Positions 47,887-49,225 of a stretch of 64,000 bases of DNA are shown in pieces. Position 1 is the stretch's first letter. Each line of letters starts with the position of its first letter. The notes below the pieces were generated by a model. It made no database searches, was not told the DNA's origin, and saw nothing but the letters and a program-made list of their open reading frames with translations. Position numbers and translations under genes: made by a program. Origin of the DNA: Escherichia coli. GTDB lineage: Bacteria; Pseudomonadota; Gammaproteobacteria; Enterobacterales; Enterobacteriaceae. Where the stretch lies: the NCBI RefSeq assembly GCF_044324875.1, contig NZ_CP172185.1; one strand, written 5' to 3'.

Positions 47887-48447
47887 ATGCCAAGCGCCCA
47901 CAGTGTTAAGCTACGCCCGCTGGAGCGTGAAGATTTACGCTATGTACATCAACTCGACAATAACGCCAGTGTGATGCGTTACTGGTTTGAGGAACCCTAC
48001 GAAGCCTTTGTTGAACTCTCTGATCTGTACGATAAGCATATTCACGATCAGAGCGAACGGCGCTTTGTGGTGGAATGTGACGGCGAAAAAGCCGGTCTGG
48101 TGGAGCTGGTGGAAATTAACCATGTTCATCGCCGCGCAGAATTTCAGATAATTATCTCCCCGGAATATCAGGGGAAAGGTCTGGCAACGCGTGCCGCAAA
48201 ATTAGCAATGGACTATGGCTTCACCGTTCTCAATCTCTATAAGCTGTATCTGATCGTCGATAAAGAGAATGAAAAAGCGATACACATTTACCGCAAGCTT
48301 GGCTTTACGGTTGAAGGTGAATTGATACATGAGTTCTTTATTAATGGTCAATATCGGAATGCCATTCGCATGTGCATATTCCAGCATCAGTATCTGGCAG
48401 AGCACAAAACACCGGGTCAGACTCTCCTGAAGCCGACCGCACAATAG
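47887..48447 (+). CDS. speG: Spermidine N1-acetyltransferase (GNAT)
   Basis: 186 aa [41 protein letters not shown]...; stop codon is the last 3 nt before IS1. Confidence 0.95.
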
Positions 48448-48462
48448 GGTAATGACTCCAAC

Positions 48463-48966
48463 TTATTGATAGTGTTTTATGTTCAGATAATGCCCGATGA
48501 CTTTGTCATGCAGCTCCACCGATTTTGAGAACGACAGCGACTTCCGTCCCAGCCGTGCCAGGTGCTGCCTCAGATTCAGGTTATGCCGCTCAATTCGCTG
48601 CGTATATCGCTTGCTGATTACGTGCAGCTTTCCCTTCAGGCGGGATTCATACAGTGGCCAGCCATCCGTCATCCATATCACCACGTCAAAGGGTGACAGC
48701 AGGCTCATAAGACGCCCCAGCGTCGCCATAGTGCGTTCACCGAATACGTGCGCAACAACCGTCTTCCGGAGCCTGTCATACGCGTAAAACAGCCAGCGCT
48801 GGCGCGATTTAGCCCCGACATAGCCCCACTGTTCGTCCATTTCCGCGCAGACGATGACGTCACTGCCCGGCTGTATGCGCGAGGTTACCGACTGCGGCCT
48901 GAGTTTTTTAAGTGACGTAAAATCGTGTTGAGGCCAACGCCCATAATGCGGGCAGTTGCCCGGCAT
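48463..48966 (-). CDS. insB: IS1 InsB
   Basis: 167-aa ORF identical in protein sequence to copy-1 InsB. Confidence 0.9.
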
Positions 48967-49160
48967 CCAACGCCATTCATGGCCATATCAATGATTTTCT
49001 GGTGCGTACCGGGTTGAGAAGCGGTGTAAGTGAACTGCAGTTGCCATGTTTTACGGCAGTGAGAGCAGAGATAGCGCTGATGTCCGGCGGTGCTTTTGCC
49101 GTTACGCACCACCCCGTCAGTAGCTGAACAGGAGGGACAGCTGATAGAAACAGAAGCCAC
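48885..49160 (-). CDS. insA: IS1 InsA
   Basis: 91-aa ORF identical to copy-1 InsA. Confidence 0.95.
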
Positions 49161-49225
49161 TGGAGCACCTCAAAAACACCATCATACACTAAATCAGTAA
49201 GTTGGCAGCATCACCCACAATAGCA

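Follow-up and report, generated by a model that had tools for sequence, protein, structure and literature searches.

How can an insertion sequence lie exactly at the end of a gene and leave both that gene and its convergent neighbour whole? This question is raised by the speG-ynfC locus of an Escherichia coli genome (RefSeq assembly GCF_044324875.1, contig NZ_CP172185.1), which we have analysed within a stretch of 64,000 nucleotides, referred to here as the window. An earlier note on this DNA had described a copy of IS1 at the speG stop codon, flanked by an 8-bp target duplication. Our reading is that this structure results from the simple transposition of an IS1A-like IS1, with an 8-bp duplication and with both genes preserved, and we give this a probability of about 0.93. 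The consequences for termination and expression are what we infer from that structure. The features that we refer to are collected in Table 1.

Table 1. Positions in the window of the IS1 copies, the target duplication and the neighbouring genes
Feature	Position	Strand	Remarks
IS1 copy 1	9724..10491	+	100% identical to copy 2, in inverted orientation
ynfB, first gene of the ynfB-speG operon	47511..47852	+	113 aa; 2 substitutions relative to K-12 YnfB
speG, spermidine N1-acetyltransferase (predicted)	47887..48447	+	intact, 186 codons plus TAG
Left copy of the target duplication, CACAATAG	48440..48447	+	last 8 bp of speG, TAG included
IS1 copy 2	48448..49215	-	0 mismatches to either of the two 54-nt end sequences
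IRR	48448..48470	+	abuts the speG stop; begins GGTAATGACTCC at 48448
insB' frame, DDE catalytic part of the InsAB' transposase	48463..48966	-	Pfam PF03400 DDE_Tnp_IS1, E = 2.3e-78
insA, repressor and transposase N-terminal part	48885..49160	-	91 codons; translation identical to K-12 insA1
A6C programmed -1 frameshift motif, TTAAAAAAC	48903..48911	-	IS1 position 305
IRL	49193..49215	-	faces the ynfC 3' end; ends GGCAGCATCACC at 49215
Right copy of the target duplication, CACAATAG	49216..49223	+	abuts the IRL end
Native speG-ynfC spacer, CA	49224..49225		2 bp, from the annotation of empty sites
ynfC, YnfC/UPF0257 lipoprotein	49226..49936	-	intact; open frame reaches 49972
Hairpin AAACCCGUU-CGAU-GGCGGGUUU, then U, in the ynfC 3' coding region	49256..49282	+	from fold analysis

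The insertion and its target duplication

A search of the window for the canonical IS1 end sequences found a complete 768-bp element on the minus strand between speG and ynfC (copy 2), with CACAATAG directly abutting both of its ends. The chance of such an 8-bp match at both ends is 4^-8, or ~1.5e-5. The base before CACAATAG is G at the left copy and the terminal C of IS1 at the right copy, while the base after it is G of IS1 at the left copy and C at the right. Since the bases on either side of the two copies differ, the duplication is 8 bp long, not 9. The exact ends and the repeat on both flanks thus bear out the position and the duplication that had been described.

The description of the site as the intergenic space of speG and ynfC did not survive. 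In annotated empty sites the stops of these two genes are only 2 bp apart, and with so short a native spacer the target must be the speG reading frame itself, namely its final 8 bp. IS1 now makes up nearly the whole of the spacer, with 776 bp between the convergent genes. Because the duplicated block carries TAG, speG is complete on the left. On the right, the second copy of the repeat is followed by CA and by the ynfC stop (TTA on the plus strand, 49226-49228, 2 bp beyond the repeat), which is complete as well, so that neither protein is altered. The duplication is what allows both genes to keep their 3' ends. It had also been claimed that speG retains its native stop. This is the case, as the reading frame ends in the TAG of the left CACAATAG, and ynfC is untouched.

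The products of the flanking genes are well conserved. SpeG scores 406 bits against the NCBIfam equivalog NF011709 (cutoff 218) over residues 1-186. Its alignment with the solved E. coli SpeG structures (PDB 6cy6 and 4r9m) runs from end to end, with S141T and M147I as the only differences. The matches to the model and to the solved enzyme predict a full-length spermidine N1-acetyltransferase. Both changes are conservative, and they are the only departures from K-12 SpeG. We considered M147I as a private mutation that would hint at decay of speG, and rejected this when the exact protein was found in 269 blocks of assemblies; none of 5426 RefSeq complete genomes encodes this same protein with I147. 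YnfC scores 417 bits against the equivalog NF002798 (cutoff 263) and also matches Pfam PF06788. It carries 3 substitutions relative to K-12, with the C-terminal 11 residues and the stop identical.

The element itself has the anatomy of its family. Its length and its imperfect terminal inverted repeats of ~23 bp (GGTGATGCTGCCAACTTACTGAT / GGTAATGACTCCAACTTATTGAT) are those of IS1, and an 8-bp CACAATAG that is single at empty sites lies within the 8-9 bp duplicated by this family. The Pfam models PF03811, PF12759 and PF03400 (Zn_ribbon_InsA, HTH_Tnp_IS1 and DDE_Tnp_IS1) match with scores that exceed their gathering cut-offs by a wide margin. Against the NCBIfam model transpos_IS1, the insB' product reaches 145.6 bits and passes the cut-off of 100. 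InsA by itself corresponds to just the N-terminal part of this full-length model and stays below the cut-off at 91.3 bits. From the coding sequence, insA and the overlapping insB' are predicted to be joined by a -1 frameshift at TTAAAAAAC.

The K-12 copies IS1A and IS1E, known as the transpositionally active 'consensus' IS1, share with copy 2 the length of 768 bp, the terminal repeats, InsA, the A6C motif and the DDE_Tnp_IS1 domain. The identity with K-12 IS1A is 765 of 768 nucleotides, with substitutions at positions 262, 444 and 561, one of which changes S to R at insB' residue 65. K-12 IS1A lies downstream of the convergent gene nhaR, whose reading enters the IRR end just as that of speG does here. 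Unlike copy 2, it has no recognisable duplication in the flanks that were read. Judging by its intact sequence, by the two identical copies in the window and by its recent arrival, the IS1 in this genome is likely to be capable of transposition.

Empty sites support the duplication and also date it. When IS1 and one repeat are removed, the result differs from E. coli BEC1-S17-ESBL-09 by 1 mismatch in 1310 nt. In E. coli strain A10 the two flanks map to overlapping coordinates, and the overlap is exactly 8 bp (2441854-2441861). A comparison with K-12 had been suggested in the expectation of a single repeat at the uninterrupted site, and the MG1655 sequence (...GACCGCACAATAGCATTAATAATAATCGAT...) does contain one CACAATAG. 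Two copies at an empty site would have been evidence against a duplication; one each is present in BEC1-S17-ESBL-09, A10, K-12 and eight assemblies that encode the identical SpeG. The site is empty in 8/8 of these assemblies among the matches listed. Set against the reconstructed empty site, the nearest of the matches listed show 2 and 3 differences in 6561 nt. Over the 20.4-kb left flank A10 has an almost identical sequence, with about eight mismatches as estimated from the bit score.

As its nearest relatives have the empty site, the insertion must postdate some very shallow splits within its lineage. The same insertion in the same orientation is found in 0/5426 RefSeq complete E. coli genomes. 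The perfect duplication, the two identical IS1 copies, the empty sites of close relatives and this absence all point to a recent event, and the view of the insertion as clean and recent is upheld by them.

We propose the following course of events. An active, IS1A-like IS1 would have transposed into the E. coli chromosome, its transposase making a staggered cut of 8 bp across CACAATAG, where a very AT-rich stretch begins. The repair of the gaps would then have duplicated these 8 bp.

Length and choice of the target

The earlier note also regarded a duplication of 8 bp as notable. We were unable to support this. An IRL scan of species-representative genomes returned 79 IS1 loci, from which we took as our sample the 14 non-redundant complete copies with perfect duplications. 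In this sample, duplications of 8 bp (6/14) are nearly as frequent as those of 9 bp (8/14), and the 6:8 split speaks against 8 bp as an unusual or site-determined length. The passages on duplication in two recent IS1 papers (one of them PMC12903888), citing Iida et al. (1985), likewise give '8 bp or 9 bp' as the norm.

The choice of the site holds the one mild surprise of this analysis, as the same target has been used elsewhere. E. coli EC09 (NZ_CM169492.1, from the human gut, Spain) carries a complete 768-bp IS1 inserted at this very position; CACAATAG is duplicated there as well, and both reading frames are kept. That said, the EC09 element is flipped: its IRL lies beside speG, which reads into insA in the sense direction, whereas here the IRR lies beside speG. 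We count differences at 2/768 nt between the EC09 IS1 and ours, and at 15/861 and 23/1057 nt in the flanks, which total 38/1918 (~2%). The orientation and the differences in both element and flanks show that this was an independent event.

Other occurrences are few. A search for the junction pattern in both orientations gave no match in 100,044 species-representative genomes, and a single metagenome contig, of the EC09 type and with a flank identical to that of EC09. Eight RefSeq records cover at least 80% of the query, with IS1 copies elsewhere in or near the locus. Some of the RefSeq copies interrupt speG or ynfC, and others lie upstream of ynfB or downstream of ynfD. A 9-bp duplication accompanies six of them; a further one, associated with a deletion, has none. 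The contrast between these six nearby 9-bp insertions and the two 8-bp events at our site is not significant.

It is worth asking if the speG/ynfC junction is a genuine hotspot of IS1, where local features of the DNA set both the exact target and the 8-bp stagger. The independent insertion in EC09, in opposite orientation, and the metagenome contig with the EC09-type junction are in favour of this. The 1310-bp speG-ynfC interval has received six distinct IS1 events, of which two coincide; a rough chance for this is 15/1310, or ~1%. The site also lies at a sharp compositional boundary: the AT content is 80% in the 30 bp to the right and 43% to the left, compared with 50.5% for the whole window. 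Such an edge is in line with the A+T-rich target preference of IS1 announced by the title of Meyer, Iida and Arber (1980), an entry in the reference list of PMC12903888.

Against a hotspot, only two events have been seen at this site, and the junction is rare (1/5426 complete genomes and 1 metagenome contig). Survivorship could account for the coincidence, as only ~11-12 insertion positions leave both reading frames intact. Two 8-bp outcomes are unsurprising at a base rate of ~0.3-0.4. The flank resembles the IS1 end at 12/14 positions, but this homology is marginal, as 12/14 is equalled by 10/300 and 13/300 controls and the length of the window compared was picked after the fact. We place no weight on homology to the IS1 end as a determinant of the target, given that 3-4% of controls reach the same match. 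An inspection of the target flank by eye for an IHF-like site found no convincing match to WATCAANNNNTTR. The coincidence of two hits is suggestive of a preferred site, for which survivorship is an equally good explanation, and we consider a true hotspot that fixes target and stagger to be unlikely.

Termination of convergent transcription

The separation of speG from its native terminator was another proposed effect of the insertion. This is correct in a loose sense, as the region in which speG transcripts end in K-12 is displaced. It is probably not correct if a discrete intrinsic terminator is meant, and IS1 itself probably acts as a substitute.

We looked for a strong intrinsic terminator downstream of speG and hold it to be an unlikely candidate, as a consensus scan of the plus strand called none in 49216-50100. 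Terminator-like and promoter-like sites in this region are no commoner than in shuffled sequences. A promoter-like site overlaps the IRL (49208-49181). The fold analysis did identify a hairpin in the 3' coding region of ynfC (Table 1). Within a 51-nt fold it has a dG of -17.5 kcal/mol and z = -3.7, with 0/200 shuffles as good. It ends in UUUU followed by ACUCC and is not called by the terminator scan. In the empty site this hairpin lies 35 nt beyond the speG stop, and it is now displaced by 776 bp. It may be a weak terminator, or a stem that protects the 3' end of the speG mRNA. A stable new 3' structure for the speG mRNA within IS1 was also rejected, as the first 281 nt have z = 0.27 relative to shuffles.

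Published transcript data from K-12 point to Rho. The Term-seq supplementary files covered here contain no 3' ends for speG or ynfC. A Rho termination region antisense to ynfC, at 1656955(+), does appear in Adams et al. (2021, eLife, supplementary file 2), with a Rho score of 6.3 and p = 1.3e-22. It lies 211 nt beyond the K-12 speG stop at 1656744, a distance that is to be read with the coarse resolution of a score computed over 800-nt windows. The same file has a Rho region at 20044(+), antisense to insB-1 of IS1A (score 7.7, p = 1.3e-10), which is ~249 nt in from the IRR end of K-12 IS1A (19796-20563, minus strand); like the first region it comes from K-12, and it concerns a different copy of IS1. 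The geometry of entry through the IRR is the same as here and our copy differs from IS1A by only 3 nt, which makes it likely that IS1 substitutes for the native Rho region.

Native termination of speG is thus probably Rho-dependent and diffuse, and IS1 probably provides a counterpart about as far beyond the speG stop, near ~48,700 in the window. In this genome the transcripts of speG would end by Rho a few hundred nucleotides inside IS1, not in the antisense of ynfC.

The pair speG-ynfC is among the 165 convergent excludons of MG1655 derived from RNA-seq (PMC12288877), a class defined by overlapping 3' transcription. The reported overlap is consistent with the Rho region antisense to ynfC, since in K-12 termination on the speG strand takes place inside antisense ynfC. 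In contrast to MG1655, IS1 places 776 bp between the two partners here. On this basis the speG-derived antisense RNA across ynfC, and with it the overlap of the transcripts, is probably reduced, and the coupling of the two genes may loosen.

The orientation of the element also sets what it presents to each neighbour. The IRR and the antisense strand of insB face speG, while the IRL and the insA promoter lie just downstream of ynfC, on the same strand. Read-through from ynfC would enter IS1 through the IRL in the sense direction. Flanking transcription does matter to IS1: a terminator placed upstream of IS1A or IS1E lowers transposition. Machida et al. (1983), on the other hand, report in their title that read-through represses IS1 cointegration. 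With such opposing reports the sign of any effect on the activity of this copy is uncertain.

Comparison with speG loss in Shigella and the wider meaning

The locus invites a comparison with the pathogens of the E. coli lineage. The ynfB-speG operon structure has been described (PMC3213128), and speG is silenced in all Shigella examined, by a frameshift, a missense change, an IS1N insertion, IS-associated deletions or complete loss (PMC3213128, PMC4156367). In EIEC strain HN280 speG is expressed at a lower level owing to an IS2 in the ynfB-speG promoter (PMC3213128, PMC4156367). In these cases, too, an IS element is found at ynfB-speG in a genome of the E. coli lineage. However, the changes in Shigella and EIEC disrupt the coding sequence or the promoter, with loss or reduction of acetylspermidine, whereas here only the 3' flank is altered. 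Set against the Shigella patterns, the window has a complete speG reading frame with S56 preserved, it lacks the GT deletion that is typical of S. flexneri, and ynfB and the sequence upstream are undisturbed.

Could the insertion nevertheless be adaptive? Uncoupled speG and ynfC units, or an altered speG 3' UTR, might shift the levels of SpeG and spermidine, and the insertion would then be an early step of the kind taken by Shigella and EIEC. The diverse and often IS-linked routes by which speG has been silenced in all Shigella examined, the IS2 of EIEC HN280, the reported excludon and the two independent strikes at one junction all give this idea some appeal. Yet the speG reading frame, its promoter side and ynfB are untouched, and an IS1 in this orientation is expected to give Rho-dependent termination at a distance similar to the native one. 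The allele of speG with IS1 is rare, and the window has no sign of an invasive pathotype. The SpeG changes S141T and M147I are conservative, and M147I is common to many assemblies with the empty site. We judge an adaptive role to be very unlikely. The net phenotypic effect is probably small, and the neutrality of the insertion that the earlier note proposed is plausible.

A broader proposal joins the two ideas: that IS1, in both orientations, prefers as its target the final 8 bp of speG, at the 2-bp junction with ynfC, and that insertion there decouples speG from ynfC and shifts the expression of SpeG or YnfC. We hold this to be very unlikely. If true, it would let selection alter spermidine acetylation while the reading frame is kept, and would be a mild, reversible counterpart of the silencing of speG in Shigella and some EIEC.

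The window contains a further IS1 (copy 1 in Table 1) with a different history. It has no target duplication at its ends, and it adjoins a gap of ~846 bp relative to strain A10 that has removed the start of an autotransporter gene. This gap is a typical IS1 adjacent deletion. An identical, inverted copy that lacks a duplication and is clearly part of a rearrangement, in an element that is a classic source of assembly breaks, might suggest that copy 2 arose by recombination between IS1 copies (an inversion or deletion) or was misplaced by the assembler, but this is barely credible: recombination with another copy would split the halves of the repeat, whereas the duplication of copy 2 is perfect; its flanks are collinear in A10 and overlap there by exactly 8 bp; and a target duplication is not something that assemblers invent, with the same structure present in an independent finished genome (EC09). 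Simple transposition remains our reading of copy 2.

Both the element and the mechanism are already known: this is a textbook IS1 and a textbook transposition. The insertion is of little importance beyond correct annotation, in which speG of this genome should be given as an intact gene. For the wider chromosome, the two inverted IS1 copies, 38 kb apart, have the potential to recombine, which would invert or delete the ydf/rsp/lsr region. This allele and that of EC09 form a natural pair of opposite orientation, with which the effect of an insertion sequence between closely spaced convergent genes on Rho-dependent termination and on transcript overlap can be studied.

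Insertions and variation at the speG stop

A second IS1 insertion at the speG stop is found in E. coli EC09 (NZ_CM169492.1, locus L005, 854-1637). The element sits in the identical target, CACAATAG, and is likewise flanked by an 8-bp duplication, with its orientation opposite to that of IS1 copy 2, the element that follows the speG stop in the window. The EC09 insertion at this target is an independent event. There is also a metagenome contig (OBVX01001744.1, L010, 1-120) whose flank is identical and whose end falls inside the same speG junction.

Within speG itself, a G-to-A change at window position 48327 (speG nucleotide 441) gives SpeG M147I. 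The exact 61-mer carrying this change has no match among 5426 RefSeq complete E. coli genomes. The exact protein with I147 is found in 269 blocks from draft and Logan assemblies, which rules out a private mutation; M147I is a lineage marker.

On the other side of IS1 copy 2, the AT-rich 3′ end of ynfC contains a promoter-like site (see table). The count of such sites in this region is not above shuffle expectation, therefore the site may be meaningless.

Window features discussed in this section
Feature	Window position	Strand	Remarks
hipA-like ORF	3274-4515	-	413 aa; in place of the TIR-domain/ISNCY content of A10
IS1 copy 1	9724-10491	+	inverted relative to IS1 copy 2
Promoter-like site	49260-49232	-	TTTACA-17-GATTAT, 9/12; directed toward IS1 and speG

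Differences from strain A10 and IS1 copy 1

Identity to E. coli A10 (L019), which is empty at the speG-ynfC site, is close to 100% to the left of the speG locus (28000-48447) and 99.3% to the right (49216-64000). Two further assemblies (L016 and L011) match both sides almost perfectly within 3 kb, which places the mosaic boundary further right and means that IS1 is not its cause. Between the LysR-family regulator and hipBA, window 2950-4295 has no alignment with A10; the A10 counterpart (24110-26638) holds a TIR-domain gene together with an ISNCY transposase that is frameshifted.

The two IS1 copies are 100% identical, but the flanks of copy 1 (left CCCTTATCC, right GAAAATTAC) show no target duplication. 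Copy 1 adjoins a gap of ~846 bp relative to A10 (17810-18655). Lost with it are the upstream region and roughly the initial 600 bp of an autotransporter gene of the ECSE_1600 family, the neighbour of lsrK. This arrangement looks like an IS1-mediated adjacent deletion.

IS1 in other assemblies

Genome-contig matches to an exact 65-nt IS1 end (L027, L028, L050, L053, L057, L077, L078 and L095) are mostly on short contigs. The assemblies concerned bear the labels Streptomyces, Bacillus, Sporosarcina, Clostridia or Lachnospiraceae MAGs, and Paenochrobactrum; a match in Scytonema lies on a large scaffold. The short-contig matches are most likely enterobacterial contamination rather than true IS1 hosts.

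Two species-representative genomes are rich in IS1: E. coli E69 (CP089930.1, loci L042-L049) and Citrobacter amalonaticus AUH_CA_2023_1 (loci L059-L076). In these, a target duplication is missing from about half of the complete IS1 copies, implying that recombination between IS1 copies, or adjacent deletion, has been extensive there.
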